Assembly: GCA_009694305.1 (NCBI GenBank)
Contig: SHVL01000003.1
Location: forward strand, 1,508-65,507
DNA length: 64,000 bases
Direction of reading: 5' to 3'
DNA from: Thermoleophilia bacterium
Lineage (GTDB): Bacteria > Actinomycetota > Thermoleophilia > Gaiellales > Gaiellaceae
Shown here in pieces: positions 11,527 to 32,761 of this stretch. Numbering within the stretch: position 1 is the first letter of the stretch; each line of letters begins with the position of its first letter. A model generated the notes under the pieces. It was not told where the DNA came from. It saw only the letters and a program-made list of their open reading frames with translations, and made no database searches. A program made the translations under genes and the position numbers.

Positions 11527-12191
11527 GCGGTCACCTCGGTGGCCCCGATCGCGGCGTGGACGCCACCGCGCGTTGCAATGATCGCCGCCTCGAGCTTCGG
11601 GACGATCCCACCCTCGAACGTTCCGTCGCCGAGCATCCGTTCGGCAGCGTCGGCGTCGAGGTGCTCCACGACCGCGCCGTCGAGCAAGACCCCGGGCACG
11701 TCACTGAGAAAGACGATTCGCTCGGCACCGAGACCAACCGCAAGAGCCGCTGCCGCCTCGTCGGCGTTGACGTTGAGCGGTCCTTCTGCGAGCGCTGCGA
11801 CGACAGGGATGAGCCCGGCGGCGAGGGCCTCCTCGATCGCAGACGGAGCGGAGGGGACGGGTTGACCGACGAGCCCGAGCTCCTCGAGTCGGTGCGCCTG
11901 CAGCCCGATCTCGTCGCCAAAGAGCGACACCGCAGCGGGGCCGATCGCGGCACAGACCTCGCTGTTCACCTCTGCGAACGCGAGACGGACGACATCGAGC
12001 ACCTCTGTGGTCGTCACGCGCCGCCCGTGGACGAAGGTGGGGGTGATCCCCCGGCGCTCCATCTCGGCGGTGATCTGCGGTCCCGCTCCGTGAACGACGA
12101 CGACGTCGTGGCCGGCCGCCCGCAACGCGAACGCCTCGGTCGCGGCGGTCGCGGCAACCCTGCCACCGAGCTTCAGCACGATTCTGCTCAT
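11523..12191 (-). CDS. argB: Acetylglutamate kinase (short form, 222 aa)
   Basis: It has amino-acid kinase motifs (VLKLGG, VVVHGAGPQI, NVNADEAAAALA) and lies between argJ and argD with ATGA overlaps. Confidence 0.8.
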   Translation of the reverse strand: MSRIVLKLGGRVAATAATEAFALRAAGHDVVVVHGAGPQITAEMERRGITPTFVHGRRVTTTEVLDVVRLAFAEVNSEVCAAIGPAAVSLFGDEIGLQAHRLEELGLVGQPVPSAPSAIEEALAAGLIPVVAALAEGPLNVNADEAAAALAVGLGAERIVFLSDVPGVLLDGAVVEHLDADAAERMLGDGTFEGGIVPKLEAAIIATRGGVHAAIGATEVTA

Positions 12192-13345: not shown

Positions 13346-13371
13346 CTACCGCTCCCTGTTTGACCGGTTCA

Positions 13372-14355
13372 TCAGACGAGGACACCGGCGAGCCTGAGCC
13401 CGGTCGTGTCGGCGAAACCGAGGGCGCGATTGACGTTCTGGATCGCCTGCCCCGCTGCGCCCTTGCCGAGATTGTCCTCGGCGCAGATGACGATCGTCCG
13501 ATCGGTGAACCGGTCGGGAAAGATGCCGATCTCGGCCCTGTCGGTTGACTGGACGCGCGCGAGGTCGGGCGCGATTCCCTCCGGCAGCACCGTAACGACG
13601 GCGCTCGACGCGTAGGCGTCCTCGAGCAACGACCGCAGGCCGGGGCCGGTTGAGCGGACGTTGCACGTGGCGATCAACCCGCGCCGGACGGGGAGGAGAT
13701 GCGGTGTGAACGAGACGGGGAAGCCGAGCAACTGCGCGATCTCCGGCACGTGCTGGTGGTTGCCGATGCGGTACGGCGAGACGTTCTCGAGCACCGAGCC
13801 GGCGTGGGAGGAGGCTTTCAGGGTGCGTCCTGCGCCCGTCATCCCGGACAGGCCGGTGACGACGACGGAGTCGGGTTCGATCGCTTTGGCGAGCGGAGCC
13901 AGGGCAAGAAGCGTCGCCGTCGCATAGCAGCCGGGGTTTGCGATCAGGCGGCCGGCCGCCGGCACGAGCTCGGGCAGGCCATAGGCCCAGTCGCCGAGTT
14001 CGTCGGGATGAGGATGTGTGAATCCGTACCAGGTGGCGTAGCTCGCAGCGTCCCTCAGACGGTGTGCGCCCGAGAGATCGACGACCACGCCGGCCGGCGG
14101 AACGGCAATCGCAGCGGCAGCCTCGTGTGAGAGGCAGATGACCGTGACGTCGGCTTCGTGGCGGAGAGCCGCATCGTTCGAGACGAACGGGGGCACCGCG
14201 GTCTGCGCGAGACGTGGGTCGAGTGCGCTCGCGGGCTGCCCGGCCAGCGAGTCGGAGCCGACCGCAACGAGGTCGAGCTCGGGGTGCCCGAGAACGCGGT
14301 CGAGCGTCTCCTGTCCGGTGTAGCCGGCCGCACCGGCGATGCTGACACTCTTCAT
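13372..14355 (-). CDS. argC: N-acetyl-gamma-glutamyl-phosphate reductase
   Basis: Motifs include SIAGAAGYTGQE and NPGCYATA (active-site Cys). I preferred the start at 14355 (MKSVSIAG) because the 20 upstream codons are AT-rich at the third position, unlike the rest of the genome. Confidence 0.85.
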   Translation of the reverse strand: MKSVSIAGAAGYTGQETLDRVLGHPELDLVAVGSDSLAGQPASALDPRLAQTAVPPFVSNDAALRHEADVTVICLSHEAAAAIAVPPAGVVVDLSGAHRLRDAASYATWYGFTHPHPDELGDWAYGLPELVPAAGRLIANPGCYATATLLALAPLAKAIEPDSVVVTGLSGMTGAGRTLKASSHAGSVLENVSPYRIGNHQHVPEIAQLLGFPVSFTPHLLPVRRGLIATCNVRSTGPGLRSLLEDAYASSAVVTVLPEGIAPDLARVQSTDRAEIGIFPDRFTDRTIVICAEDNLGKGAAGQAIQNVNRALGFADTTGLRLAGVLV

Positions 14356-14356
14356 A

Positions 14357-14392
14357 ACTGCATAGTATGCACTAGAATAAGCTTCTATGCAG
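14357..14392. promoter_or_regulatory. Putative ArgR operator (ARG-box-like palindromes) overlapping the argC promoter
   Basis: This is an AT-rich island. It contains TGCATAGTATGCA (14359-14371, perfect 6-1-6 palindrome), TAGAA-TAAGC-TTCTA, and a second TATGCA (14386-14391). A minus-strand TACTAT lies 6 nt before the argC ATG and no SD is present. Confidence 0.5.
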
Positions 14393-14673
14393 GGAGAAGA
14401 TGTGAGCGGCGTCACTTCCTGCTTGCAGCCTCAGCCGATTTCAGGCATCATTCGGAGCCGATGCTTTGCCTCGCCGTACCCGCGCCCGACAGCGATCCGC
14501 GACCTGCGGTATCCCGCGGCGTAGGCATCGAGCTCATCGACATTCTCCCGCGCTAGGGAGAGGTCGCTCGCGCACAGATCGCAAACCGGTGCAGCGGGCG
14601 ACGAGGACAGGGCCGTTCGCCTACCCCGGCGAACAGAGGAGGGACGGAGCACCGTGAGACTGAAGGACAGCAG

Positions 14674-16943: not shown

Positions 16944-17933
16944 ATGACGGCAACAATCCTCCACGACGGTGACCTCGGACTGCTCAACGGCAAGACTGCG
17001 GTCATTGGCTACGGGAGCCAGGGTCACGCACACGCGCTCAACCTTCGCGACTCGGGCATCGAGGTCGAAGTAGGGCTGCGCGAAGGCTCCGCCTCGTGGG
17101 GCGAGGCCGAGGCGACAGGCCTGACCGTCCGGACGATCGCCGAGGCCGTCACGGGCGCACAGCTCGTGGCGCTCCTGCTCCCGGATCAGGTGCAGCCGCA
17201 GGTCTTCTCCGAGCACATCGAGGCGAACCTCGCGCCGGATGCGGCCGTCCTCTTCGCCCATGGCTTCAACGTGCTCTACGAGCGCATTGCCCCGAGCGCC
17301 GCCCATGACGTGATCATGGTCGCCCCCAAGGGCCCCGGTCACGTCGTGCGCCGGCTCTTCACGGAGGGATACGGAACGCCGGCGCTCATCGCAGTCGAGC
17401 AGGACGCCTCCGGCAACGCCCGCGATCTTGCTCTCGCGTATGCCGTCGGCATCGGCGCGGGCCGGGCCGGCATCCTCGAGACGACGTTCAAGGAGGAGAC
17501 GGAGACGGATCTCTTCGGCGAGCAGGCGGTTCTCTGCGGCGGTACCTCGGAGCTCGTTCGCGCAGGGTTCGAGACGCTCGTCGAGGCGGGATACGCACCC
17601 GAGATCGCCTACTACGAGTGCCTCCACGAGCTGAAGCTGATCGTTGACCTGATGTGGGAGAACGGGCTCGCCGGGATGCGGTACTCCATCTCGGACACCG
17701 CCGAGTTCGGTGACTACACCCGTGGCAAGCGTGTGATCGACGGGCGCGTCCGCGAGCAGATGAAGGGAATCCTGACGGACATCCAGTCGGGCGAGTTCGC
17801 CCGCGAATGGGTGGAGGACATGGACAACAACGAGGTGCGCCTCAAGGCGATGCGGGCCGAAGCTGCACAGTCGCAGCTCGAGACGGTCGGCAAGGAGCTC
17901 CGCGGTTTGATGCACCGTGCGGGCGACCGCTAG
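16944..17933 (+). CDS. ilvC: Ketol-acid reductoisomerase
   Basis: Motifs include [23 protein letters not shown] and [14 protein letters not shown]. Confidence 0.93.
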
Positions 17934-17937
17934 AGGT

Positions 17938-19245
17938 ATGGCCGCTGTTGACGTACCGGTCGCGCTGCTCGGGTACGGCACCGTCGGCGCTGCCGTGCAT
18001 CGGCTGCTCGAAGAGTCCGCAGACGAGATAGAGCGAGCCACCGGGCACCGCCTGCGGGTGACGCGCGCGCTCGTGCGGGACACGGGTAAGGATCGTGGAT
18101 TCTCGCCCGGGCCGGGGGTGCTCACCGACGACATCCAGGTCATCCTCGGTGATCCGTCGATCCAGGTCGTGGCCGAGGTGATGGGCGGTGTAGAACCGGC
18201 CGGGAGCCACGTGCTGGAGCTCCTCCGCTCGGGACGACCCGTCGTGACGGCGAACAAGCAGCTCGTCGCACGGCGCGGCACCGAGCTCTTCGAGGCTGCC
18301 GCTGCCGGTGGAGTGCAGCTGCGGTTCGAGGCGTCGGTCTGTGCCGCGATCCCGGTGATCAAGGTGCTGCGCGAGTCCCTGATCGTCACGAACGTGCACC
18401 GCGTGCTCGGCATCGTCAACGGGACGACGAACTTCATCCTCTCGGCGATGGAGGAGGGCCGCTCGTACGACGACGCTCTTGCCGAGGCCCAACGCCTCGG
18501 GTTCGCCGAGGCCGACCCGACAGAGGATGTCGGAGGGCTGGATGCGGCGGCCAAGACGGCGATCCTCGCGACGGTTGCCTTCGGCTCTCGCGTGCCGCTC
18601 GAGTGGGTCGAGGTCGAGGGCATAGAGGGAGTCACGCTCGACCACGTCGCAGCGGCACGGGCTCTCGACATGCACGTCAAGCTCATCGGCAGGGCGACGC
18701 TCGTGGGTGACCGCGTAGACGTGCGCGTCGGCCCGGCGTTCGTGGACGGACACCATCCGCTCGCAGCAGTAGAGGGCGCCTTCAACGCCGTCATGCTGCA
18801 CGGCGACGCGATTCGTGAGATCACTCTCGAGGGACCCGGTGCCGGTGGGATCGAGACGGCGTCGGCGGTCGTGGCCGACATGGTCTCGGTCGTCGGTACG
18901 ACCGGGACGGGGTTCCTCCAGAACGACCCCGTCTGGCGGCACCTCGAGAGGCTTCCGCCCGGCGATCTCACCTCGCCGTTCTACCTCCGGCTCGAGGTGG
19001 AGGATCGCGCGGGCGTGCTCGCTCGTATCGCGCAGGAACTTGCGGCGGAGAGCGTCTCGGTCGCGCAACTCGTACAGCAGACCGCCGACGACCGCGCAGT
19101 GCTTCATATCGTCACCCACGATGCGGCAGCGGGACGGGTCAACGCCGCTCTCACCGCGATCCGGGCTCTGCCCGAGGCTCGCGGTGAGGCAACCGCCATT
19201 CCCGTCATCTCCAGCCGAGGTGTTGCAGAGCTGGGCTGGGCGTGA
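17938..19245 (+). CDS. hom: Homoserine dehydrogenase
   Basis: It has VALLGYGTVG, NGTTNFIL and a C-terminal ACT domain. I chose the ATG at 17938 just after the ilvC stop. Confidence 0.88.
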   Translation: MAAVDVPVALLGYGTVGAAVHRLLEESADEIERATGHRLRVTRALVRDTGKDRGFSPGPGVLTDDIQVILGDPSIQVVAEVMGGVEPAGSHVLELLRSGRPVVTANKQLVARRGTELFEAAAAGGVQLRFEASVCAAIPVIKVLRESLIVTNVHRVLGIVNGTTNFILSAMEEGRSYDDALAEAQRLGFAEADPTEDVGGLDAAAKTAILATVAFGSRVPLEWVEVEGIEGVTLDHVAAARALDMHVKLIGRATLVGDRVDVRVGPAFVDGHHPLAAVEGAFNAVMLHGDAIREITLEGPGAGGIETASAVVADMVSVVGTTGTGFLQNDPVWRHLERLPPGDLTSPFYLRLEVEDRAGVLARIAQELAAESVSVAQLVQQTADDRAVLHIVTHDAAAGRVNAALTAIRALPEARGEATAIPVISSRGVAELGWA

Positions 19246-20216
19246 CGATCGCCCTGATCGACAGGTATCGCGGGGCCCTACCCGTCAGCGAGGCAACACC
19301 CGTTATCTCGCTCGGCGAAGGATCCACGCCGCTCCTGCGCGCCCCGCGTCTCTCCGAGCGGCTGGGGGTCGAGATCCTGCTCAAGTGGGAAGCGTCGAAC
19401 CCGACGGGCTCCTACAAGGATCGTGGGATGACCGTCGCTGTCTCGAAGGCGGCAGAGGCCGGCGCCGAGGCCGTCATCTGCGCCTCTACCGGCAACACCG
19501 CGGCCTCGGCGGCGGCCTACGCGGCGCGGGCCGGCATCCCGGCCGTCGTGCTCACCCCGGCGGGTGCCGTGGCGGGTGCGAAGGTCTCGCAGACACGGAT
19601 GCTCGGCGCAACGGTGCTCGAGGTGCGCGGCGACTTCGACGAGGCGCTTGCCGCCGCCCAGGAGCTCTCGCGGCGCGGCACTCACGTGCTCGTCAACTCC
19701 GTCAATCCGCACCGTCGCGAGGGGCAGAAGACAGCGGTCTTCGAGATCGTCGAGGAACTGGGTGCAGCCCCCGATGCGTTCGTGATCCCGTACGGCGGTG
19801 GCGGTAATACCTCCGCCTACGCCGCAGGAATCTCCGAGCTCGGAATCGCGACCCCGATCTACTCGGTCGAGGCCGAGAATCGGCCGGCGACCCTCGCCTC
19901 GGCGATCCGGATCGGTGCCCCTGTCCACGCCGCAGCCGTACGCGCCTCGGGGGCCACGATCGTGACGGTGTCCGACGAGGAGATCGTCGCCGCCTGGCTC
20001 GAGCTCGCGACGGTCGAAGGTCTCTTCTGCGAGCCGTCGTCGGCGGCCGGCCTCGCCGCGATTCGTCGTGGCGCCGTTCCCGGGGAACGGCTCGTCGTCA
20101 CGATCACGGGCCACGGTCTGAAGGACACCGAGAACGCAGACCGGTACGCGCCGCCACTTCAGCAGATAGACGCCGATCCCGACGCGATCGCCGCTGCAGC
20201 CCAGAGCAAGCGATGA
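19242..20216 (+). CDS. thrC: Threonine synthase (short type, 324 aa)
   Basis: The PLP-lysine motif NPTGSYKDRG is present. It lies between hom and thrB, with GTGA and ATGA overlaps. Confidence 0.88.
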   Translation: MTIALIDRYRGALPVSEATPVISLGEGSTPLLRAPRLSERLGVEILLKWEASNPTGSYKDRGMTVAVSKAAEAGAEAVICASTGNTAASAAAYAARAGIPAVVLTPAGAVAGAKVSQTRMLGATVLEVRGDFDEALAAAQELSRRGTHVLVNSVNPHRREGQKTAVFEIVEELGAAPDAFVIPYGGGGNTSAYAAGISELGIATPIYSVEAENRPATLASAIRIGAPVHAAAVRASGATIVTVSDEEIVAAWLELATVEGLFCEPSSAAGLAAIRRGAVPGERLVVTITGHGLKDTENADRYAPPLQQIDADPDAIAAAAQSKR

Positions 20217-21025
20217 TCGTTCGGGCTCCTGCGACCTCCGCGAACATCGGATCTGGATTCGACACGGCCGCCGTGGCGTTCGACCTCTGGAACGAGCTCG
20301 AGGTGAGCGACGGCTCCGGCGTTGTCATCGAGGGAGAGGGAGCCTCCGAGCTCGTTGCGAATAGCGACAACCTTGCCGTGCGCGCCTTTGCGCTCCTCGC
20401 CGACCCGGCCGGAAAGCACTTTCGTTTCCGCAACCGCATCCCGCTCGAACGCGGCCTTGGCTCGTCCGCGGCGGCAATCGCGCTCGGGCTCGTGGCTGCG
20501 GCCCCCGATGCTATGCCCGGGGATCTGCTGGCGGCGGGGCTGACCCTGGAGCCGCACGCAGACAATCTGGGGGCTGCACTCCTCGGTGGCCTGACTCTTG
20601 CCTGGGACGGAAGGATCGCCCGGATTGCCGAGAGCCTGCCGCTCGACGCGATCGCAGTCATCCCGAGTGCGCGAACCTCGACGGCAGCCTCGCGGGGCAC
20701 GTTGCCGGCGACCGTCCCCCATGCCGAGGCGGCAGCGAGTGCAGGACGTGCAGCCCTTCTCGGCGCAGGGGCCGCGAGTGGTGACGCCACCCTCTTTGCC
20801 GCGGCACTCGGCGACTGGCTCCACGAGCCGTATCGTCCCTCCGCCGTGCTCGAAGCTGTACGTGAGAGCCCCCCTCGCGGCTGTGCCGGAGCAACGCTTT
20901 CCGGATCGGGACCGACCGTGATCGTGTGGGCCTCCGACCGGAAGGCCTGCGCCGACGACCTCCGCGCGCGATTCTCCGAGTGTCGCATTCTCGAGCTCGC
21001 TGTCGTGCCGCGGGGCGCTCTGTGA
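20213..21025 (+). CDS. thrB: Homoserine kinase
   Basis: It carries the GHMP kinase motif PLERGLGSSAAA and begins APATSANIGSGFD. Confidence 0.88.
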   Translation: MIVRAPATSANIGSGFDTAAVAFDLWNELEVSDGSGVVIEGEGASELVANSDNLAVRAFALLADPAGKHFRFRNRIPLERGLGSSAAAIALGLVAAAPDAMPGDLLAAGLTLEPHADNLGAALLGGLTLAWDGRIARIAESLPLDAIAVIPSARTSTAASRGTLPATVPHAEAAASAGRAALLGAGAASGDATLFAAALGDWLHEPYRPSAVLEAVRESPPRGCAGATLSGSGPTVIVWASDRKACADDLRARFSECRILELAVVPRGAL

Positions 21026-21729
21026 GCCTCCTGCTCGCTGACGTTCGTCCGCGCGCAGCGTACGACGCAGGGCATCTGCCGGGAGCCGTTCACCTCGACC
21101 CGGAGGCCGACCTGTCGGCGGTCGGCCCGGATCCCGCCAACGGTGGGCGCCATCCGTTACCGGACGATTCCCGGCTCGAGGACGTGTTCGCGCGCGCAGG
21201 CATCGGGGCGACCTCGTTCGTCCTTGCGCTCGACGACGGCTCGGGCTGGGCCGCACGCTGCTGGTGGCTGTTACGCCATCTCGGGCACGATGCTGCCGGA
21301 ACACTCGACGTCCGTGGCTATCTCGGCCCGCTCTCGACCGTCGAGGCAGAGAATCCGCAGGCCGCCTTCCAGGCGAGGCCGCGCTCGGACGACTGCATCT
21401 CGGCCGAGGAGATCCTCGGCCGTCTCGACGATCCAGCTCTCGTGCTCTACGACGCTCGCAGCCGTGTGCGCTGGCTTGGCGAGGCCGAGCCGCTCGATCC
21501 GGTCGCCGGTCGGATTCCGGGCGCGCTCAATGCGTATTTCGAAGACCAACTGCCCGCCGGAGCCACCGGGCACGCGGAGATCGTGGCGTACTGCGGCTCC
21601 GGCGTGACGGCCTGCGTCGTCGCCCAGAAACTCGTTCTCGCCGGCCGCGAGGACGTCCGCCTATATGCTGGCTCGTTCAGCGAGTGGTGCCGTCGTGAGA
21701 GCTACCCCATCGAGAAAGGAACCCCTTGA
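21022..21729 (+). CDS. Two-domain rhodanese (thiosulfate/3-mercaptopyruvate sulfurtransferase-like)
   Basis: The second domain has the active-site loop YCGSGVTA. The GTG start overlaps the thrB stop, and its own stop overlaps the ilvD TTG start. Confidence 0.75.
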
Positions 21730-23438
21730 CTACACCGTACGATCGTCCTTCCGATCCCGCCAAGCGCATCAGCGCTGCCCTCACCGACGGCCCCGACCGG
21801 GCGGGAGCTCGCTCGATGCTGAAGGCGACAGGCTTCACCGACGAGGACCTCGCGAAGCCGATCGTCGGTGTCGGCACGACCTGGATCGAGACGATGCCGT
21901 GCAACCTCAACCAGCGCGACCTCGCGGTGCATGTCAAGCGCGGTGTTCGCGACGCAGGCGGTACGCCGATGGAGTTCAACACGATCGCGGTCTCGGACGG
22001 CGTCTCGATGGGGACGTCCGGCATGCGCGCCTCGCTCGTCTCGCGCGAGGTGATCGCCGACTCGATCGAGCTCGTCGCACGCGGGCATCTCTTTGACGGG
22101 CTCGTTCAGCTCGTCGCGTGCGACAAGACGAACCCCGGCGGCGCGATGGCCGTTGGGCGGCTCGACATCCCGTCCGTCCTCTACTACTCCGGCTCGATCG
22201 CGCCCGGGCTCTACCGGCAGCGCGAGGTCTCGATCGGTGATGTCTACGAGGGTATCGGCGCCCACGCGGCCGGCAAGATCACCGACGAGGATCTCCACGA
22301 GCTCGAATCGGCGGCGTGTCCCGGTGCGGGAGCCTGCGGTGGCCAGTTCACGGCCAACACGATGTCAACGATCCTCGACTTCCTCGGGCTGTCCCCGTTC
22401 GGGGCAAACGGAATCCCTGCGATGCATCGAGGCAAGGAACAGGCAGCCTACGAGGCGGGAGTCCTTGCCGTCCAGCTCGTGCGCGACAACGTAACGCCAC
22501 GATCGCTCGTCACGAGAGAGTCGTTCGAGAACGCCGTCGCCTCGGTTGCTGCAACCGGCGGTTCGACGAACGCCGTGCTCCACCTCGCCGCTATTGCGCG
22601 CGACTTCGGGATCGAGTTCACGATCGACGACTTCGAGCGTATCTCGGCCCGAACGCCGATCATCGCCGACATGAAGCCCTGGGGGCGCTGGCATGCAAGC
22701 GACATGTACAACGCCGGAGGTGTCGGCCTCGTCGCGCGTGAGTTGAAAAAGGCGGGCCTGCTGCACGAGCATGCGAGGACGATCGACGGACGGACGATCG
22801 GTGAGATCGCCGATGCGGCAGTGGAGAAGGACGGCCAGACGGTCGTCGTTCCGATCGAGACCCCCTTGAAGCCGCGCGGCGGCGTGGCAGTCCTGTACGG
22901 CAACCTTGCGCCCGAGGGGTGTGCCGTCAAGCTCGCCGGGCACGACCGCACGCTTCATCGCGGGCCTGCGCGTGTCTTCGACTCGGAGGAGGACACCTTT
23001 GCTGCGGTCAAGGCCGGCAAGATCGTGGCGGGCGACGTGGTCGTCATTCGCTACGAGGGCCCGCACGGCGGCCCCGGGATGCGAGAGATGCTGCACGTCA
23101 CGGGAGCCATTGTCGGCGAAGGCCTCTCGGATTCGGTCGCACTCGTCACCGACGGGCGGTTCTCCGGCGCGACTCACGGCTTCATGATCGGCCATGTTGC
23201 TCCCGAGGCGTCGAGAGGCGGCCCGCTGGCAGCAGTGCGCGAAGGCGACATCGTCGTCGTGGACGTCGAGAATCACGAGCTCAACGTCGAGCTCACGGCT
23301 GCCGAGATCATCGCGCGCCTGGCCGACTGGGTCGAGCCGGAACCACGCTACCGCCGGGGCGTGCTCGCGAACTACGCGACTCTCGTCTCGTCTGCCTCAC
23401 TCGGCGCGGTCACGCTCTCGCGGTACGAGACCGCATGA
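21726..23438 (+). CDS. ilvD: Dihydroxy-acid dehydratase
   Basis: Motifs include [22 protein letters not shown] and RFSGATHG. Confidence 0.93.
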
Positions 23439-23454: not shown

Positions 23455-23470
23455 TTACTTCTTGAAGTAA
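23455..23470. promoter_or_regulatory. AT-rich perfect palindrome TTACTTC-TT-GAAGTAA upstream of peroxiredoxin
   Basis: Read directly from the sequence. It is an isolated AT-rich inverted repeat in a 70% GC background, about 90 bp before the prx ATG. The 2-nt spacer makes an RNA hairpin unlikely, so it may be a protein operator. Confidence 0.35.
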
Positions 23471-23555
23471 TGCTTTTGGACAGGCTCTAGCCAACAGAGG
23501 TTGGCGTGCCGTAGGCGCATCGCGCGCATCCGTACGAGAAACCAGGAGGACGAAA

Positions 23556-24215
23556 ATGGCACTGCATCTTGGCGACATTGCGCCTGATTTTCGGGCCGAG
23601 ACCACCGAAGGCCCGATCGGCTTCCACGACTGGATCGGCGACGCCTGGGCGGTTTTGTTCTCGCATCCGAAGGACTTCACCCCGATCTGCACCACGGAGC
23701 TCGGCTACATGGCGAGGATCAAGCCCGACTTCGACAGCCGCGGGGTGAAGATCATCGGTCTCTCGGTTGACCCGGTGGACAGGCATGCGGCCTGGGCGGC
23801 AGACATCGAGGAGACGCAGGGGTATGCGCCGAACTTCCCGATGATCGCAGACGTCGATTTCAACGTCTCCAAGCTCTACGGGATGCTCGGCGCCGATGTC
23901 TCGGGCGATCCCGCCGACCGCACGGCAGCCGACAACCAGACGGTGCGCAACGTGTTCGTGATCGGTCCTGACAAGAAGGTCAAGCTGGTTCTCGTCTACC
24001 CGATGACGACCGGCCGTAACTTCGACGAGGTACTCCGGGTGATCGACTCGCTGCAGCTGACGGCGAAGCACAAGGTCTCGACACCGGTCAACTGGAAGCC
24101 CGGCGAGAACGTCGTCATCGCCGGCTCGGTGACCGACGAGCAGGCCCGCGAGATCTGGCCCGACGGCTGGGAGTCACCGAAGCCCTACATCAGGATCGTG
24201 CAGCAGCCGAGCTGA
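23556..24215 (+). CDS. 1-Cys peroxiredoxin (Prx6-like)
   Basis: The N-terminus LGDIAPDFRAETTEGPIGFHDWIGDAWAVLFSHPKDFTPICTTELG carries the peroxidatic Cys motif. The SD AGGAGG lies upstream. Confidence 0.88.
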   Translation: MALHLGDIAPDFRAETTEGPIGFHDWIGDAWAVLFSHPKDFTPICTTELGYMARIKPDFDSRGVKIIGLSVDPVDRHAAWAADIEETQGYAPNFPMIADVDFNVSKLYGMLGADVSGDPADRTAADNQTVRNVFVIGPDKKVKLVLVYPMTTGRNFDEVLRVIDSLQLTAKHKVSTPVNWKPGENVVIAGSVTDEQAREIWPDGWESPKPYIRIVQQPS

Positions 24216-24270
24216 CCGGCGGGGAGAGTTGCCGCCAGGGTGGGGAGTACATGAACGGCCCACCTGCACG

Positions 24271-25050
24271 TCAGTAGGTCTTCGCAATCAGGCCCCCGTC
24301 AACCACGAGGGACGTGCCGCTGACGAACGATGCCTCGTCGGAGGCGAGATAGACGACGGCTGCGGCAACCTCGCGCGGGTGGGCTATCCGCTTGCCCGGA
24401 TAGGCGGACTCCATCTCGTCCCGGGCCGCCGCCGCATCCTCGGTGCCGGCGAAGTACTCCTCGATCATCGGTGTCTCCATGTCCCCCGGGCAGACGCAGT
24501 TGCAGCGGATCCCGTCGGCCGCGTAGTCGATTGCGATTGCCTTCGTGAGCCCGAGAATCCCCGACTTCATCGCCGTGTAGGCCGCCAGGTATCCGTCTCC
24601 CGTGAACGACAGGATCGAGCCGACGTTGACGATCGCGCCCGGTCGGCCGGCGGCGCGCATCGCCGTGACCGCGTGCTTGCAGCCCCAGAACGTGCCGGTC
24701 ATGTGGACGGCGAGCAACTGATTCCACTGCTCGTTCGACGTTTCGTGCAGCCGGCCCTCGCCGAGAATCCCGGCATTGTTGACGAGCACGTCGAGGCTTC
24801 CGAACTCTGCCTCGCAGCGGGCGATCGCACGCACGATGTCGGCCTCGCACGTCACGTCGCCCTGCTCGAACACCGCGACCCCACCGGCAGCGGTTGCCTC
24901 GGCCGCGACCGCTGCTCCAGCCTCTGCATTCCGCGAGAGGGCGACGACCCGGGCGCCTTCGCGGGTAAACGCGAGGACGATCTCGCGACCGAGACCCCTC
25001 GAGGTTCCCGTCACGACTGCTGTTTTTCCGGCAAGACGCGTCATTCCCAA
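24271..25050 (-). CDS. Short-chain dehydrogenase/reductase
   Basis: It has TGTSRGLG, NNAG and YxxxK (YTAMKSG). Confidence 0.85.
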   Translation of the reverse strand: MGMTRLAGKTAVVTGTSRGLGREIVLAFTREGARVVALSRNAEAGAAVAAEATAAGGVAVFEQGDVTCEADIVRAIARCEAEFGSLDVLVNNAGILGEGRLHETSNEQWNQLLAVHMTGTFWGCKHAVTAMRAAGRPGAIVNVGSILSFTGDGYLAAYTAMKSGILGLTKAIAIDYAADGIRCNCVCPGDMETPMIEEYFAGTEDAAAARDEMESAYPGKRIAHPREVAAAVVYLASDEASFVSGTSLVVDGGLIAKTY

Positions 25051-25123
25051 CCTCCTCTGGAGCTATGCCGACCCTCTGCCTGCCGGCCGGCTTCACCCGG
25101 ACAGGGTGCCCACGTGTCCGACC

Positions 25124-25396
25124 TTACGACCCGGCGTCTTCCCGCGTTATGTCGTCCAGCAACTCCCCGGCGGAAAGGACTTTGAGCGTCCAGTGATCAT
25201 GCATCCACGCGAGATGCGAGTGTCGTGCTGCGACGATCCTGATGGTGTCCCAGTTCGGGAACTCCTGCTGGCTGAGGTGGTCGGTCATGAGCTTCGGGTC
25301 AACCTCGAAGATATGCTCGAAGCGCATGATCGCCACGTCCGATACCTGCACCGGGTCGGGCGGGGTCGTCTCGTCGGCATAGCGGTAGGCGGTCAT
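25124..25396 (-). CDS. 90-aa protein of unknown function, translationally coupled to the FAD oxidase
   Basis: The ATG overlaps the upstream stop (ATGA), and the SD GAGGAGGTGGA is embedded in the oxidase 3' end. I recognise no motif. Confidence 0.55.
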   Translation of the reverse strand: MTAYRYADETTPPDPVQVSDVAIMRFEHIFEVDPKLMTDHLSQQEFPNWDTIRIVAARHSHLAWMHDHWTLKVLSAGELLDDITREDAGS

Positions 25397-26901
25397 TCCA
25401 CCTCCTCGTAGGCGCGGTCGAGAAGGTACTTGCCGGGATTCATGATGTTCCCCGGATCGAGGGCGCGCTTGATGGTGAGCATCACGTCGAAGACTCCACC
25501 GAGCTCGGTCGGCACGAGATCTACCTCGCCCTCGCGGCATGATCCGTGACAGGCGCTGATCGAGCCGCCGTGCGCGATCGCGACCGCGGAGAACTCGCGC
25601 TTGGCATTCACCCACAGCTGCCAGGCCTCGTCGTCGAGCTCCTGCTCCCAGATGCCCACGTCGATCTCGACCAGGTAGTCGGCGCCGGTGGGTCCGTTCG
25701 TGTACGCGAAGATCCCCCAGTCGTCGAAGATCTCCGACGCGCGACAGAGCCGCGCCATGATCTCGTGCCACTCTTTCCGAACTGCGGGAACGGCGGTGTA
25801 GTTGATCGACGCGTCCTCACAGTGCCAGCCCATCGGCACGACCTGGCCCGCGCGCGTGCGCCCGTGCAGTGGAGTCGCGTAACGGTCGTGACGCGCGGCC
25901 CAGTCGCCCTGCGAGATCTCGTCACCGAGATAGGTTCCCCCGTGATCGCGCGCGATGCGCATCAGCCGCCGGCCGCCGGCCTCCACCTCCTCCTCGTTGC
26001 CGTAGAGAGCAGCACAGACGAGCGCGCGGACACTCTCGGGCTGCGGAATGTAGGCCTCGTCGTCGCGACGCAGGTAGGCGACCTTCTCGGGATCGAAGAT
26101 CACGGCGCCCGCGAAGGTGGCGCAGTTCGCGCGCACGATCAATCCGACAGCGCGATAGGCCTCCTCGTAGCTCTCGAAGGCCCAGAAGGGAGACAGCTCG
26201 GCCTCCGGCTTGTCGTACAGCTTCAACGTCGCTTCGGTCGCGACACCAAGCGTCCCTTGATGGCCCATGAAGAGCTGTTTGAGGCTGTAGCCGGACGAGC
26301 TCTTCGAGAGCTTTGCACCGCCGCCGTCACCGACCTGGATCACTTGCCCCGAGGGAAGCACGTGGGTGAAGCTCAGAACGAGATCCCGGGTATGGCCGTA
26401 CCGGCTGCCGATGAGCGACCAGCCGCTCGTGCCGATCCGGCCGCCCACGAGCGAGCATGGATACGAGGCGGGGTCGTCCGGGTAGATGAGGCCGTGCTTG
26501 CCGAGCACCTCGTTGAGCTTCAGCATGTTGACGCCGGCGCCGACCCGGCAGGTGCGGTTCTCGAGGTCGATCTCGTGGATCTCGTCGAGCCGCTTGAGGT
26601 CGAGCAGGATACCTCCCCGCAACGGGACTGCGCCGTCGGTCAGGCCGGTTCCACCGGAGCGAGGTACCACCGGAACCCCGAAGCGGTTCGCGATGACGAC
26701 GATGGCAGCGACCTCTGCCGTCGTGCCCGGCAACACGACGATACCCGGCACGTGCTCGGCCCAGCGATGAACCGGAAACGGTGCCGGGACGCGTGCCCGG
26801 TGGAAACGTGCCGCGCGATCGGCGATCACGTGAGCGTCACCGATCGCAGCACGTAACGCCTCGGCTACCTCCGGGTCGATCTCGGTGAGAACGGTACTCA
26901 T
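25393..26901 (-). CDS. FAD-linked oxidase (GlcD / D-lactate dehydrogenase-like)
   Basis: The FAD_binding_4 pattern VVPRSGGTGLTDGAVP is present, and the C-terminus ALDPGNIMNPGK is typical. The start MSTVLTE overlaps the upstream stop (ATGA). Confidence 0.85.
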   Translation of the reverse strand: MSTVLTEIDPEVAEALRAAIGDAHVIADRAARFHRARVPAPFPVHRWAEHVPGIVVLPGTTAEVAAIVVIANRFGVPVVPRSGGTGLTDGAVPLRGGILLDLKRLDEIHEIDLENRTCRVGAGVNMLKLNEVLGKHGLIYPDDPASYPCSLVGGRIGTSGWSLIGSRYGHTRDLVLSFTHVLPSGQVIQVGDGGGAKLSKSSSGYSLKQLFMGHQGTLGVATEATLKLYDKPEAELSPFWAFESYEEAYRAVGLIVRANCATFAGAVIFDPEKVAYLRRDDEAYIPQPESVRALVCAALYGNEEEVEAGGRRLMRIARDHGGTYLGDEISQGDWAARHDRYATPLHGRTRAGQVVPMGWHCEDASINYTAVPAVRKEWHEIMARLCRASEIFDDWGIFAYTNGPTGADYLVEIDVGIWEQELDDEAWQLWVNAKREFSAVAIAHGGSISACHGSCREGEVDLVPTELGGVFDVMLTIKRALDPGNIMNPGKYLLDRAYEEVE

Positions 26902-28178
26902 GCCCCGCGGCTCCCGCCTACCTCGATCCCGAGCGATTCGGCCAGCAGCTCGTGAATGTCCATCACCTCGATCGCCAGGGACTCCCCGGCGGCACCGAGC
27001 GGCCGCTCCGACCAGGGGCAGGCGCTGACGAGGGTGTCTACCTCGAGCTCCGCGGCCTGGCCCATCCGGCGTTCGCTGATCGCCGCTGTCAGCTCCGGCT
27101 TCGCGATCGAAAGCCCGCCACCGGCACCCGAACAGTACGACCACTGGGTGACATGGTCCACGTCCTTGAAGATCAGTCCCGGGATCGCGCGCAGAATCTC
27201 GCGCGGCTCCTTCCAGACGCCCTTTCGCTTGTTCAGGCGGCACGGATCGTGGTAGGTGATGGTGCGGTCGATCGAGACCGACGGCGTCAGCCTGCCGTCA
27301 CGGATCAGTTCGGCGAGTACCTCGATAGCAAGAACGATCTCGATTCCCGCGAATTCGTCACCGAAGTACCGCGGATAATCCTCGGTGAACGTGATGTAGT
27401 CGTGCGGGTCGAGAACGATGACTCGCTCCACTCCGCTCGCACGCCAGTCGTCGAGATTGTGTCGGGCAAAGCGTTTTGCCTGATCGACGTACCCCATCTC
27501 GGCTGCCGGCCCACCACAGCACCACTGCTCACGCATCAGGCCGAACTCGACCCCGGCGAGCCCGAGGATCTGCGCCACCGCTCGCGGCACGGACGTCCGG
27601 TAGAACGCCGCCTCACAGTCCACGAACAGGATCGTTGCGCCTCCGGTCGGCAGATCGAGGTCGTCTGCCCAGTCGCGCACTCTGTCCTGGCCCACCGGAG
27701 CACCGTCCGCTGCCTCTCCGAGCACGGGCTCGTGACGACGCTCGTCTGTGAGCAGGTTCCAGCGGGCATAGCTCGGCTGGTCGAGGCCGGCGTCAACCGT
27801 GAGGGCGCGCATCGACCTGACGAGATCTACCGTGCGCGTGCGGAAGCGATAGAAGTCGCCGGTGAACAGCGTGTTCGGGCACCGCAGCTCACACGCGCCA
27901 CACTGGGTGCAGTTGACGTAGTCCTCCGCAACATCGGCCAGTTCGAGCTCGCCCTTCTCCATCGCGACGACGTTGGCGTGGAAGGCCGTCGGCGTCCACG
28001 ACTCGTTCCGCGTGACCTGCATGACCGGGCACACCTCACGACAGAACTTGTGGCCCGAGCTGTAACAGTTGTACGCGGCGTCCCGCCACTCGGCGACGAA
28101 CTCCGAGGCAAGGCCCTCGACACCCGCCGGGTCGTCCGGCCTGGCCCGTCCCGGTGCGGCGCCCGGTTCAGCGCTCAT
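26898..28178 (-). CDS. (Fe-S)-binding protein with two CCG domains (GlcF/HdrD-like)
   Basis: It has the ferredoxin-type CTQCGACELRCP plus the cysteine-rich motifs CCGGPAAEMG, HDPCRL, YCSGAGGG and SACPW. Confidence 0.85.
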   Translation of the reverse strand: MSAEPGAAPGRARPDDPAGVEGLASEFVAEWRDAAYNCYSSGHKFCREVCPVMQVTRNESWTPTAFHANVVAMEKGELELADVAEDYVNCTQCGACELRCPNTLFTGDFYRFRTRTVDLVRSMRALTVDAGLDQPSYARWNLLTDERRHEPVLGEAADGAPVGQDRVRDWADDLDLPTGGATILFVDCEAAFYRTSVPRAVAQILGLAGVEFGLMREQWCCGGPAAEMGYVDQAKRFARHNLDDWRASGVERVIVLDPHDYITFTEDYPRYFGDEFAGIEIVLAIEVLAELIRDGRLTPSVSIDRTITYHDPCRLNKRKGVWKEPREILRAIPGLIFKDVDHVTQWSYCSGAGGGLSIAKPELTAAISERRMGQAAELEVDTLVSACPWSERPLGAAGESLAIEVMDIHELLAESLGIEVGGSRGA

Positions 28179-28353
28179 AGCGACCTCGACTCGAGTGCGG
28201 CACGCATGATGCTGCGTAGCTTAGGAGGGCGGGATCTCGTGTGTCAAGCGGACAGACGGAGGGAGCGAGGGGGATCACAGGAGAGCCAGCGCCTCTGCCG
28301 GCGCACTCTCGATGGGTCCGCTACCCTTGCGGGTCGGTGCGGGACCCGTTCCG

Positions 28354-28449
28354 CTCCACATCAAGAGAGGCTGAGGGACCGGCCCTGTGAAGCCTCGGCA
28401 ACCTGCCCCACATATCGGGCGACGGTGCCAATCCCGGACGGATGTCGAG
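28354..28449 (+). promoter_or_regulatory. SAM-I (S-box) class riboswitch aptamer
   Basis: The element CTCCACATCAAGAGAGGCTGAGGGACCGGCCCTGTGAAGCCTCGGCAACC...GGTGCCAATCCCGGACGGATGTCGAG matches the remembered consensus AUCAAGAGAGG-GAGGGAC-GGCCC-GAAGCC-GGCAACC...GGUGCCAAUUCC. P1 pairs CUCCACAUC with GAUGUCGAG. P4 is very short. The SD at 28458-28463 and the ATG at 28473 follow directly, with no terminator. Confidence 0.85.
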
Positions 28450-28472
28450 CGACGACCAGGAGGTTCTGTCCC

Positions 28473-29690
28473 ATGCCCGCTGTTTCCCTTAGCTGCCGTA
28501 TCTGCTCGATCGAGCACCCGCTCGTAGCGACCGGCTCGTGTAGTCGCTGCTTCGGCCCTCTCGACCCGACCTACGACTGGGACGCACTCCGCGCCCGGGT
28601 CAGCCGTGCCTCGATCGAGGCGGGCCCGGCGTCGATCTGGCGCTACGCCGACCTGCTCCCGGTTGCGGCACCCTCGGACGCGAGGCTCGCGCCGGGGATG
28701 ACGCCGCTGCACCCGGCTCCCCGGCTTGCCGCGGAGCTCGGGATCGGGGAGCTGTGGCTCAAGCTCGACACGGCCAACCCGACCCACTCCTTCAAGGATC
28801 GCGTGGTGGCCGTGGCCGCGCGCAAGGCGCAGGAACTCGGGTTGGAGACACTCTCGTGCTCGTCCACCGGGAACCTCGCGGGAGCCGTGGCAGCGCGCGC
28901 GGCGGCCGAGGGCCTCGAGGCAGTGGTCTTTGTCCCGAGCGACCTCGAACCCGAGAAACTCGCTGCCGCCGCCGTCTACGGCCCGCGCATCTTTGCGGTC
29001 GCAGGGACGTACGACCACTGCTCACGGCTGTCGGTCGAGTTGTCGTTCGAGCTGCCATGGGGGTTCGTCAACGTCAACCTGCGCTCGTACTACGCCGAGG
29101 GGTCGAAGACGATTGCCTACGAGATCGCGGAGCAACTCGGCTGGCAGACGCCGGACGCCGTCGTCATCCCGATTGCCTCCGGCGCCCTCTTCCACAAGGT
29201 CGGACAGGGATTCAATGAGCTCGCGACGCTCGGCCTCGTGGACGGCTCCGCGCCGTCTCTCTTTGGCGGACAGGCAGCCGGGTGCGAGCCCGTTGCGGTG
29301 GCTTTCCGCGAAGGGGCACGCGTGGTGCCCGTGCGGCCCGCGAGCATCGCCCGCTCGCTCGCGATCGGCAACCCTGCCGACGGCGATTTCGCAGTCGCAA
29401 CGGCACGGGCGACAGGTGGAGCGATTCATACCGTCGCCGAGGACGAGATCGGCCCCAACATGGAGCATCTAGCCGCAACGACAGGCGTTTTCGGTGAGAC
29501 GGCGACCGGTGTCACGCTCGGTGCGTTGAAGGCCGCAGTCGCCGCCGGGCAGGTCGGACGACAGGCGCGCGTCGTCCTTCTCGTCACCGGAGACGGGTTG
29601 AAGACACCCGGACCGGTCTCGAACACCTACGATCCGATCATGATCGAAGCCGACGCAGACGCTTTCCTCGAGCAGGTGCTCGTCACCTGA
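28473..29690 (+). CDS. Threonine-synthase-family PLP enzyme with N-terminal zinc ribbon (second ThrC paralogue)
   Basis: [23 protein letters not shown] gives a CxxC...CxxC pattern, and [10 protein letters not shown] is the PLP-lysine motif. It is 405 aa. The SAM riboswitch lies immediately upstream, and its stop overlaps the leuC ATG. Confidence 0.8.
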
Positions 29691-31105
29691 TGCCGGGTCA
29701 AAGCCTGTTCGACAAGGTATGGGACCGGCACATCGTTCGCCAAGAGCCGGACGGACCAACGCTGCTCTACATCGACCTGCACCTCGTGCACGAGGTCACC
29801 TCACCCCAGGCGTTCGAGGGGCTGCGGCTCGCCGGACGGCGCGTGCGCCGACCCGACCTGACGGTCGCCACGATGGACCACAACGTTCCGACGTTGCCGG
29901 GACCGATCACCGACCCGATGGCGAAGGCACAGCTCGATGCACTCCGCTCGAACTGCGAGGAGTTCGGCGTCGAACTGCATGGCACCGGTTCGGGCAGCGA
30001 GGGGATCGTGCATGTCATCGGCCCGGAGCTCGGGCTCACGCAGCCGGGAAAGACGATCGTCTGCGGCGACAGCCACACGTCCACGCACGGCGCGTTCGGG
30101 GCCCTCGCGTTCGGCATCGGCACCTCCGAGGTCGAGCACGTCCTTGCGACTCAGACGCTCAACCAGAAACGGCCGAAGACGATGCTCCTCGAGTTTGTCG
30201 GCACACTTCCGCCCGGACTCACGGCCAAGGACATGATTCTCGGTGCGATCGGCCAGGTCGGTGTAGACGGCGGTGTCGGCTACGTCGTGGAGTACGCGGG
30301 AGACGCCATTCGCAAGCTGACGATGGAGCAGCGGATGACGGTCTGCAACATGACGATCGAGTGGGGTGCCCGTGCCGGCCTGATCGCACCCGACGCCACC
30401 ACCTTCGACTACCTCGCAGGCCGTCCTCAGGCGCCCCGGGGAGCAGACTGGGAGCGGGCCGTGGCCGACTGGAGCTCTCTCCCGTCCGATCCGGACGCCA
30501 CCTACGACGCCCACGTCGTCGTCGATGTGTCGGAGCTCGCGCCACAGGTGACGTGGGGCACGAACCCGGGCATGGTCGTTCCCGTCACGAGCACCGTTCC
30601 CGACCCCACGGCATTCTCCGATCCCGATGATCGAGCCGCCTGCGAACGGGCGCTCGCCTACATGGGGCTTCGGCCCGGCCAGGCGATCGAGGAGATCCCG
30701 GTCGATCGCGTGTTCATCGGCTCGTGCACGAACTCACGGATCGAGGATCTCCGGGCTGCGGCCGAGATCGTCCGAGGGCACGTGGTCGATGCGCGCGTGA
30801 CCGCGCTCGTCGTGCCCGGGTCTGCCGCCGTGCGGCGCCAGGCGGAGGAGGAGGGACTCGACCGCATATTCCTCGACGCGGGCTTCGAGTGGCGCCTCGC
30901 GGGCTGCTCGATGTGCCTCGGGATGAACCCGGACATCGTCGCACCAGGAGAACGATGCGCCTCGACGTCGAATCGCAACTTCGAGGGACGCCAGGGCCAC
31001 GGTAGCCGGACACATCTCGTCAGCCCGCAGATGGCTGCGGCGGCGGCGATCTACGGCCACTTCGTGGACGTCCGCGCACTCGCAGCCGAGCCGGTGCCGG
31101 CGTGA
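29690..31105 (+). CDS. leuC: 3-isopropylmalate dehydratase large subunit
   Basis: It has the aconitase-family motifs [32 protein letters not shown] and CSMCLGMN. Confidence 0.93.
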
Positions 31106-31692
31106 AGGCGATCTCGCTGGTCTCGGCCCGCGTGGCGGTTCTCGACCGCCCCGACGTAGACACCGACCAGATAATCCCGAAGCAGTTCCTCAAGCGCATC
31201 GAGCGCACCGGGTACGGGAAGTACGTTTTCTTCGACTGGCGCCTCGACGAGGACGGCAACGAGCGGCCCGGTTTCGAGCTCAACCAGCCCCAGTTCGCCG
31301 GGGCGAAGATTCTCCTGGCGGGACGCAACTTCGGCTGCGGCTCATCGCGTGAGCACGCTGCGTGGGCGCTACAGGACTACGGGTTCGACGTCGTCATTGC
31401 ACCCTCTTTCGGAGACATCTTCCGCTCGAACGCCGCCAAGGTCGGCATGATCATCGTCGAACTCCCCGATGAACAGGTGAAGGAGCTGATGGAGGGGGTA
31501 GACCTCGACCGCGGCTCGGATCTCACCGTAGACCTCGACGCGCAGACCGTGACGACCCCCGACGGCAAGGTTCTGCCGTTTGCCTTTGACCCGTCCACGC
31601 GATACCGACTGTTGAACGGCATCGACGATATCGGCCTGACCCTCCAGTACGAGGCCGAGATCAGCGCCTACGAGCACGCCCGAGCGACGTGA
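31102..31692 (+). CDS. leuD: 3-isopropylmalate dehydratase small subunit
   Basis: It has [12 protein letters not shown] and [13 protein letters not shown]. It overlaps leuC (GTGA). Confidence 0.92.
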
Positions 31693-31744: not shown

Positions 31745-32761
31745 GTGTCACACGGGAGTGGTGTTGCTTTGAGCGATGTTGCGGTATTGCCCGGTGACGG
31801 GATCGGACCGGAGGTCACGGCCGAGGCCGTGCGCGTGCTCGATGCCTTCGGGGTCGGACACACGGAGCATCCTTTCGGGGGCAACGCGATCCTCGCCCAG
31901 GGGACGCCGCTACCGTCCGAGACACTCGCAGCCTGCCGTGAGGCCGATGCGGTCCTGCTCGCCGCGATCGGGCTCCCGGAGCTCGAGGGGAAGCCGGTGC
32001 GGCCCGAACAGGGGCTCCTCGCTCTCCGCAAGGAGCTCGGGGTGTACGCAAACCTGCGGCCGGCCCGGGCGGACGGGATCGACATCATGATCGTCCGCGA
32101 GCTCGTCGGGGGCCTCTACTTCGGCGAAAAGGGCATCCGCGAAGACGGAACGTGGTTCGACACCTGTGAGTACTCGCGCCCCGAGGTCGAGCGGATTGCA
32201 CGTCGTGGCTTCGAGATTGCCGGCGTCCGCGGCGGTCGTCTTACCTCGGTAGACAAGGTCAACGTCATGCACACGTCGCGGCTCTGGCGCGATGTCCTCA
32301 CCGAGATGGGGACGAGCCTTTACCCCGGGGTCGCACTCGATCACGCGCTCGTAGACTCGTTTGCGATGACGATCGTCCAGGCCCCCGAGACGATCGACAC
32401 CGTCGTGACCGAGAACATGTTCGGCGACATCCTCTCCGACATCGCTGCAGCCGTGACCGGAGGGCTCGGTCTTGCCGCTTCTGCGTCGCTCGGTGACGAC
32501 GGGCCCGGGGTCTTCGAGCCGGTTCACGGTTCTGCGCCACTGATTGCCGGCCGTGGGATAGCGAATCCGGCGGCCATGCTCCGTTCGGTTGCACTGTTGC
32601 TTCTGCACGGCCTCGGCCGTGCAGATGACGCTGCCGCCCTCGAGCGCGCAGTTGACGAGGCGCTCGTGCACGCACCGACCCCCGACCTCGGCGGCACCAG
32701 CACGACGAGCGACGTCGGCGACGCGGTGTTGCGCGCCCTCGAATCTGCGCCTACCCTGTGA
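31745..32761 (+). CDS. leuB: 3-isopropylmalate dehydrogenase
   Basis: It has LPGDGIGPEV and NMFGDILSD. The start is uncertain. The TTG at 31769, with GGGAG 10 nt upstream, gives a more typical N-terminus. Confidence 0.88.
   Translation: MSHGSGVALSDVAVLPGDGIGPEVTAEAVRVLDAFGVGHTEHPFGGNAILAQGTPLPSETLAACREADAVLLAAIGLPELEGKPVRPEQGLLALRKELGVYANLRPARADGIDIMIVRELVGGLYFGEKGIREDGTWFDTCEYSRPEVERIARRGFEIAGVRGGRLTSVDKVNVMHTSRLWRDVLTEMGTSLYPGVALDHALVDSFAMTIVQAPETIDTVVTENMFGDILSDIAAAVTGGLGLAASASLGDDGPGVFEPVHGSAPLIAGRGIANPAAMLRSVALLLLHGLGRADDAAALERAVDEALVHAPTPDLGGTSTTSDVGDAVLRALESAPTL

Follow-up and report, generated by a model that had tools for sequence, protein, structure and literature searches.

A SAM-I riboswitch and a predicted MetM-family homocysteine synthase gene in a Gaiellales-type clade without a neighbouring sulfur-carrier gene

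The SAM-I riboswitch and the metM-like gene

The DNA considered here is a 64-kb stretch from a Thermoleophilia bacterium of the Gaiellaceae (contig SHVL01000003.1, positions 1,508 to 65,507; this whole stretch of 64,000 nucleotides is called the window below), in which an S-adenosylmethionine (SAM)-I riboswitch precedes a gene of the threonine synthase (ThrC) fold that belongs to the MetM family. The SAM-I (S-box) aptamer lies at 28355-28448 on the forward strand and is the single Rfam match in the window (RF00162, 73.8 bits against a gathering score of 44.4, E 2e-15). The match covers model positions 1-108 of 108, and P1, P2, and P3 align with high posterior probability. A near-consensus S-box aptamer had been placed at 28354-28449 in a preliminary description of this DNA, with covariance-model scoring proposed as a check; the scoring bears it out, SAM-I beating its clan competitors SAM-IV and SAM-I/IV at this site. 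P1 is extended outward by CGC/GCG, so that 28352-28362 pair with 28441-28451. P4 is down to a few bases and almost deleted in the window's subclade (28430-28442 in the window, CCCGGAC-GGAUG), and a full P4 hairpin of 20-35 nt is kept in more distant members of the clade (e.g., L005, L007, L096, and L129; columns 152-173 of our leader alignment A3).

The aptamer is embedded in a leader with several further features, all on the forward strand. A -10-like hexamer of the form TAnnnT, TACCCT at 28322-28327, is a candidate promoter element and aligns with TATACT, TAGAGT, or TACAGT in most of 55 related leaders (A3 columns 4-11). No full sigma-70 site came out of a consensus scan; if the hexamer serves as the promoter, we infer that the transcript would start a few nucleotides 5' of the leader 5' arm, GCGGGAC at 28339-28345. 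This arm has two partners by complementarity. One is the 3' arm of a leader hairpin, GUUCCGC at 28348-28354, which closes with CGC, three bases that also serve the extended P1 as its outer end. The other is the translation-start region GUCCC-AUG-CCCGC at 28468-28480, a candidate target of the 5' arm judging from the minimum free energy fold and conserved complementarity. The Shine-Dalgarno sequence AGGAGG (28458-28463) lies 9 nt after the aptamer, the spacing already given in the preliminary description, and 9 nt before the ATG, and a GGAG-type site is kept at the equivalent position in relatives (A3).

The gene itself (28473-29690, forward strand) starts with the ATG at 28473 and encodes a 405-aa zinc-ribbon, pyridoxal phosphate (PLP)-dependent enzyme of the ThrC fold, as judged from Pfam, NCBIfam, alignment, tree, and an AlphaFold2 (AF2) model; the protein is a predicted O-phosphohomoserine-dependent homocysteine synthase. 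The N-terminal ribbon (C8-x-x-C11 and C23-x-x-C26) and the PLP motif NPTHSFKDR (residues 102-110, with the catalytic lysine K108 within SFKDR) are both present as had been described for the 405-aa product. The protein matches Pfam PALP with 199.7 bits and the thrC model TIGR00260 with 232.6 bits (cut-off 167.1), a model that cannot tell MetM from ThrC, since the true ThrC of the window scores 224 bits. Other identities were rejected: the cysteate synthase model TIGR03844 gives 48.7 bits against a cut-off of 324.9, and IlvA-type models stay far under their cut-offs. A 912-aa open reading frame (ORF) beginning with GTG at 26952 was also discarded as an artefact of there being no in-frame stop ahead of the riboswitch, and homology together with the Shine-Dalgarno sequence sets the start at 28473.

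The AF2 model built from a diverse alignment reached a mean predicted local distance difference test score (pLDDT) of 94.3, and a shallow alignment of close relatives gave pLDDT 58. Its fold matches in the PDB (Foldseek) were threonine synthases only; there is no MetM structure in the PDB. Alignment to PDB 6cgq showed that STGNL replaces the STGNT of ThrC and NLRSYY replaces SVNPYR, such that L135 stands for the Thr of STGNT, the Arg is shifted (R204), and Y207 occupies the position of the ThrC Arg. We take STGNT and SVNPYR to be the motifs that bind the substrate phosphate in Thermus ThrC structures. The closest proteins, 81-92% identical, come from Gaiella sp., G. occulta assemblies, and soil metagenomes, and their source name is threonine synthase in every case.

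Family placement and the clade without a neighbouring carrier gene

Relatives were drawn from a search of 1.84 billion cluster representatives, and the loci compared comprise 80 from species-representative genomes and 80 from metagenomes. Carrier genes were counted at loci with at least 400 nt downstream, and loci encoding a protein less than 61% identical to the window protein were taken as lying outside its clade. The relatives fall into two groups in the alignment, a window-like group and a group with YNRN..NPY..EGKKT that is closer to ThrC. The loci outside the clade number 78 and come from Solirubrobacterales, Miltoncostaeaceae, Acidimicrobiia, Chloroflexota, and Cyanobacteria; 74 of them carry a carrier gene directly downstream on the same strand, an ORF of ~90 aa ending in PAVAGG with a ThiS/MoaD fold (PF02597; the best NCBIfam models are SAMP1 and MoaD_arch). 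Homologues in Thermoleophilia, Acidimicrobiia, Chloroflexota, and Nonomuraea have a SAM-I aptamer immediately ahead of the gene. In Nonomuraea gerenzanensis (class Actinomycetes), a SAM-I aptamer (68.7 bits) is followed by a thrC-like gene, whose product is 53.5% identical to the window protein, and then by a 91-aa carrier gene.

In neighbour-joining trees with zinc-ribbon ThrC-like proteins and the window's own ThrC as outgroup, the window protein joined the carrier-linked proteins in 100/100 bootstraps. All 18 family-specific positions, i.e., positions at least 90% conserved across the family and different in the ThrC-like outgroup, are present in it (e.g., V111, L135, R204, S211, C271, T343, and T378), and two of the 18 lie within the STGNL and NLRSYY motifs. 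These results support the assignment of the window enzyme, from its sequence, to the MetM family and not to ThrC. They also uphold what the preliminary description had proposed, namely a ThrC paralogue with a role in homocysteine or methionine formation: the enzyme groups with SAM-I-led, carrier-linked thrC-like genes, with full bootstrap support in the kind of phylogenetic comparison suggested there. The MetM/MetO route that it named for Streptomyces is real. MetM is described as making homocysteine from O-phosphohomoserine and the MetO thiocarboxylate (Hasebe et al., 2024, as cited in 10.1101/2024.10.14.618325), and PMC12172450, which cites the same work, places a SAM riboswitch upstream of metM in Streptomyces albulus and a metO-like gene next to a cyanobacterial homologue that is 51.6% identical to S. 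albulus MetM. The metM-metO arrangement was reported in 2024 for S. albulus, and the core of our finding is therefore not new. What we add is a Gaiellales-type clade, monophyletic and including the window, that has no carrier gene beside metM and that differs in genomic setting and in expression platform.

The loci encoding a protein at least 61% identical to the window protein form this one clade, which was monophyletic in 100/100 replicates. Its 68 loci show no carrier gene anywhere in the fetched flanks, which total 357 kb between them, and neither tblastn nor hidden Markov model searches on all six frames found a ThiS/MoaD/CysO-like ORF in the 64-kb window. The absence of a small carrier ORF beside the gene had been remarked on in the preliminary description, and it holds throughout the clade. 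Four loci outside the clade likewise have no nearby copy. The position of the clade depends on the method: it was nested beside Thermoleophilia carrier-linked sequences with BLOSUM-based neighbour joining, and sister to all carrier-linked sequences in 87/100 replicates with Kimura distances. We therefore do not read a direction, whether carrier loss or carrier gain, out of the tree by itself.

Overall diversity in the clade is lower than in the carrier-linked group, yet ~25 conserved positions are changed or relaxed in it. Nine positions that are at least 85% conserved in carrier-linked enzymes are fixed to another residue (P32, S130, C183, S184, G266, E323, N329, G350, and A355), and 16 that are at least 90% conserved there are relaxed; at the zinc-ribbon position E10, the carrier-linked group has 100% E and the clade has V, I, A, or N. 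Judging from these alignments, the chemistry or the partner may differ, and the substitutions fit a change of partner or sulfur donor without proving one. A SAM-I leader precedes the gene in 56 of the 64 clade members with enough upstream sequence. A sub-branch at 63-66% identity (L134, L135, L136, L139, L140, L141, L143, and L146) has no SAM-I match at the Rfam threshold, so that this sub-branch has neither riboswitch nor nearby metO; virtually no spacer separates the gene of L146 from the ilvD ahead of it.

Leader pairings and the proposed switch

The 55 clade leaders compared (A3) share one layout, in which a TAnnnT box and then a GC-rich hairpin (GCGGGC...GUCCCGC) precede the aptamer, and a linker of ~10 nt and then a GGAG-type Shine-Dalgarno sequence lie between the aptamer and the start codon. 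Across the clade, 40-71 nt separate the start codon from the conserved GGTGCCAA close to the aptamer 3' end. With 9 nt between the aptamer and the Shine-Dalgarno sequence, and no terminator-like site found downstream of the aptamer in the window, we regard the switch as translational, in agreement with the preliminary description, which had called translational control probable for want of a terminator. The alternative pairing suggested there, GGACGGA with TCTGTCC, did not hold up in comparison: it is 7/7 paired only in the window, and a relative with 91% protein identity has 3/7. The TCTGTCC sequence is present, but at 28465-28471 instead of 28464-28470.

A better candidate for the alternative pairing, which we propose with moderate confidence from the leader sequences, is the 5' arm, whose pairing would switch between its hairpin partner and the start-codon region. 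By pair counts over the 55 leaders, the extended P1 is 96% paired, with four pairs changed on both sides, the two arms of the leader hairpin are 88% paired, and the 5' arm is 80% paired with the start region (AUGCCCGC). In L130 the arm (GCAGGC), its hairpin partner (GCCUGC), and the second-codon region (AUGCCUGC) have all changed together, and in L110, L114, and L118 the pairing between arm and start is kept through G-U pairs. The hairpin 3' arm (CGUCC) can in many lineages also pair with GGACG or GACG of the linker after P1, where both sides have changed in L083-L085. The minimum free energy fold of the window leader pairs 28341-28345 with 28468-28472. When P1 was forced, the start window paired with the arm at 0.56, compared with 0.38 for shuffled arms, the observed value being the higher in 49 of the 55 leaders.

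From these pairings, the switch may work as follows. SAM would stabilise the extended P1, which would capture the 3' arm of the leader hairpin; the G-rich 5' arm (GCGGGAC), freed in this way, could then pair with GUCCC-AUG-CCCGC and occlude the start codon. Several results tell against this scheme. A simple thermodynamic mimic did not separate the bound and unbound states, a 4-nt block of P1 leaving the extended P1 intact; the ~20% of leaders whose second codon is CCA or UCA break the arm/start helix in this register; and that helix shows few truly compensatory changes. Whole-leader folding gave no signal (z-score 0.39), and the conservation of the start region is confounded by the coding constraint for Met-Pro-Ala. 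The leader hairpin could be a mere 5'-terminal stem-loop that stabilises the mRNA, with SAM acting by occlusion of the Shine-Dalgarno sequence or by Rho-dependent termination in untranslated metM. Its location at the predicted 5' end of the transcript would suit such a role, as would the scarcity of compensation in the arm/start helix and a start sequence, AUGCCCGC, that could be kept for coding. A stabilising stem-loop does not lead us to expect the joint alteration of all three partners in L130, the G-U pairs retained in L110, L114, and L118, the second pairing of the 3' arm with the post-P1 linker with its two-sided change in L083-L085, or arm/start pairing above that of shuffled arms in 49 of 55 leaders, and we consider it possible but on balance unlikely.

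Gene neighbourhood, sulfur donor, and comparison with known systems

The metM-like gene sits between hom-thrC-thrB-ilvD and leuCDB-pheA; the coordinates given for these genes are on the forward strand. A translationally coupled hom-thrC-thrB operon (17917-21025), whose conventional thrC had been noted in the preliminary description, comprises hom (17917-19245; assigned by synteny and Pfam labels in L001 and L002), the canonical threonine synthase gene thrC (19242-20216, NCBIfam 224 bits), and thrB (20213-21025, NCBIfam 144 bits), which encodes the kinase that makes O-phosphohomoserine. A tandem-domain rhodanese gene follows (21022-21729), its GTG start overlapping the thrB stop and its active-site loop, CGSGVTA, being of the 3-mercaptopyruvate sulfurtransferase (MST) type, and then ilvD (21726-23438; synteny), conserved in the clade as the gene ahead of the riboswitch and metM. 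Downstream are leuC (29690-31105, NCBIfam 763 bits), leuD (31102-31692, 239 bits), leuB (31745-32761, 358 bits), and then pheA. G. occulta (L001) and a Gaiella-like contig of 1.6 Mb (L002) have the order ilvC-hom-thrC-thrB-rhodanese-ilvD-[metM-like]-leuC-leuD-leuB-pheA, which is also that of the window, where hom, thrC, thrB, rhodanese, and ilvD are joined by 4-nt overlaps. Clade-wide, metM lies after hom-thrC-thrB-ilvD and before leuB-pheA, with leuCD between in the closest relatives.

The metM TGA overlaps the leuC ATG (ATGA, 29688-29692) behind a weak Shine-Dalgarno-like sequence; the overlap occurs only in the window, L002, and L009, the closest relatives, with gaps of 1-75 nt in others. 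Given this overlap and the leuC-leuD-leuB-pheA genes that follow, SAM repression of metM could spill onto the leucine genes through coupling or polarity. A block of ~5 kb lies between ilvD and the riboswitch in the window (23466-28178), encoding a 1-Cys peroxiredoxin (forward strand) and, on the reverse strand, a short-chain dehydrogenase/reductase, a GlcD-like FAD-linked oxidase, and a CCG-domain Fe-S protein. The block is missing in G. occulta (L001), and peroxiredoxin-Usp-Pyr_redox_2/CBS genes stand in its place in L002; the intergenic site looks like a hot spot for insertions. Elsewhere in the window, an ANTAR response regulator and a GAF/HisKA_2 kinase adjoin glutamine synthetase (1345-3340, reverse strand, and 4015-8445), and a nearby ammonium-transporter ORF is unusually long (796 aa), Ammonium_transp matching its N-terminal part only. 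An arginine cluster (argC, argJ, argB, ..., argH) occupies 8652-14415 on the reverse strand; its 512-aa ORF at 9884-11422 has ArgR domains only C-terminally and is probably two genes or has a mis-called start. On a Chloroflexota contig (L038), a T-box leader (6690-7116, 104 bits) lies just downstream of metO, with hom-thrC-thrB upstream of metM and no SAM-I match.

Taken together, the locus is probably a SAM-I riboswitch through which plentiful SAM shuts down the translation of a MetM-family enzyme, and the enzyme likely makes homocysteine. ThrB, encoded 7 kb upstream, would supply O-phosphohomoserine; the metM product would swap its γ-phosphate for sulfur, giving homocysteine, which would feed methionine and SAM synthesis, and it would compete with canonical ThrC for the substrate. 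Weighing against this reading are the carrier gene missing from the window and from all clade flanks, the ~25 altered positions, the sub-branch without a SAM-I match, and the indirect nature of the tie to the characterised S. albulus MetM, which we draw from operon architecture and the published identity of the cyanobacterial homologue.

That the gene simply encodes a second threonine synthase is what the TIGR00260 score above cut-off, the best solved structures and folds, and the name in all sources would say. MetM is often so misannotated (GapMind, 10.1101/2024.10.14.618325), the window has a canonical thrC within hom-thrC-thrB, there is no rationale for putting threonine synthesis under SAM control, the STGNT and SVNPYR motifs differ, and in most lineages a sulfur-carrier gene accompanies the family; we regard this possibility as very improbable. 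Scarcely better is the prospect of another γ-replacement on O-phosphohomoserine, with cysteine to give cystathionine or methanethiol to give methionine. SAM control would need only a methionine-related product, and carrier loss with altered conserved positions would allow a new nucleophile, but all 18 family signature residues are retained, and Pfam scans showed no cystathionine β-lyase gene among the main ORFs of the window.

The sulfur donor is the less certain part of the homocysteine reading. With metO absent nearby, a carrier encoded in another part of the genome would have to deliver the sulfur, or else sulfide or a persulfide would supply it directly. The rhodanese, put forward as a candidate donor in the preliminary description, is a real gene, but it lies between thrB and ilvD only in the carrier-less subclade of at least 72% identity, plus L099; in carrier-less members at 63-69% identity thrB abuts ilvD, and the rhodanese is therefore no general MetM partner and only a possible sulfur source. 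A SufS cysteine desulfurase gene (51613-52857, reverse strand; TIGR01979, 568 bits) lies 22 kb from metM, unlinked, and is a possible persulfide source. A MetO-independent enzyme in the clade, for which the direct source of homocysteine sulfur is sulfide itself or a persulfide, either protein-bound or of low molecular weight (supplied, e.g., by the MST-type rhodanese or SufS), would agree with the carrier count (0/68 loci against 74/78 elsewhere), with the monophyly of the clade in 100/100 bootstraps, and with its nine fixed and 16 relaxed substitutions, E10 included, as well as with the coupling of the rhodanese to thrB and the presence of sufS in the window. It sits badly with the rhodanese-less members at 63-69% identity and with the four loci outside the clade that also have no nearby metO. 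The carrier search, moreover, covered the window and flanks, and among the matches listed in the metO-homologue search all were at least 74% identical. Because the window encodes a molybdopterin oxidoreductase, a MoaD-type carrier system should exist somewhere in the genome. Mec and MoeZ are presumably encoded away from metM in Streptomyces, in which case trans-encoded parts would be normal. GapMind treats the two as separate steps in Streptomyces (10.1101/2024.10.14.618325). We hold carrier independence to be doubtful, and most of the remainder of the probability goes to a carrier encoded in trans. It is thus with reserve that we mention that the clade may be a carrier-independent MetM offshoot, a ThrC-fold O-phosphohomoserine sulfhydrylase wired into the hom-thr-ilv-leu supercluster and gated by SAM-I through the toggling 5' arm.

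The metM/metO route was described only in 2024, annotation pipelines still call such genes threonine synthase, and NCBIfam release 20 has no MetM model. Because MetM is so named, pathway reconstructions for Gaiella and many soil Thermoleophilia miss the homocysteine step. A clade that keeps a SAM-controlled enzyme without a neighbouring carrier raises the question of whether the ThrC fold can use sulfide or persulfide directly, which bears on how sulfur enters methionine in abundant but hard-to-grow soil actinobacteria.

The closest known system is MetM/MetO of S. albulus (Hasebe et al., 2024, Appl Environ Microbiol 90:e01247-24), which likewise has a ThrC-homologous PLP enzyme behind a SAM riboswitch. 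The window protein falls within the sequence family whose thrC-like genes have a CysO-like carrier gene behind them, and its expected substrate, O-phosphohomoserine, would be the same, here from ThrB encoded nearby. Unlike the S. albulus system, the clade has no adjacent metO, either in the window or in the flanks of its 68 members; the window gene lies inside hom-thrC-thrB-ilvD/leuCDB-pheA and not in a two-gene operon; and ~25 positions otherwise conserved in carrier-linked MetM differ. The homology search started from the Nonomuraea protein returned Streptosporangiales only, with no Streptomyces match. A comparable chemistry operates in the CysM/CysO/Mec/MoeZ system of Mycobacterium tuberculosis, where a PLP enzyme swaps the phosphate of an O-phospho-amino acid for the sulfur of a thiocarboxylated ThiS-like carrier; CysM is of the CysK/CysM fold subfamily and not ThrC, uses O-phosphoserine, and is not known to involve a riboswitch. 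Mec and MoeZ are also counted by GapMind as parts of the MetO route (10.1101/2024.10.14.618325).

Compared with canonical ThrC (PDB 6cgq, 1uim, and 2d1f), the window protein has the same fold (Foldseek target-normalised template modelling score ~0.85, 33-34% identity), the same PLP lysine motif, and, by prediction, the same substrate, but it differs from those structures in its N-terminal zinc ribbon, in STGNL and NLRSYY, and in its SAM control; the true ThrC of the window is encoded apart from it at 19242-20216. The leaders differ as well between lineages carrying the orthologous gene. A Solirubrobacterales leader (L011, 4920-4990; the one leader read in that lineage) has a terminator hairpin with a T-run. 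Acidimicrobiia leaders (L032, L033, L040, L046, L049, L064, L074, and L080) have the Shine-Dalgarno sequence inside the P1 3' strand, GAUGAGGAG, and a clear TTGAC...TACAAT promoter ahead, while Gaiellales-type leaders have the 5' hairpin whose arm matches the start-codon region. A single aptamer-gene pair served by three expression platforms offers a compact system for the evolution of riboswitch platforms.

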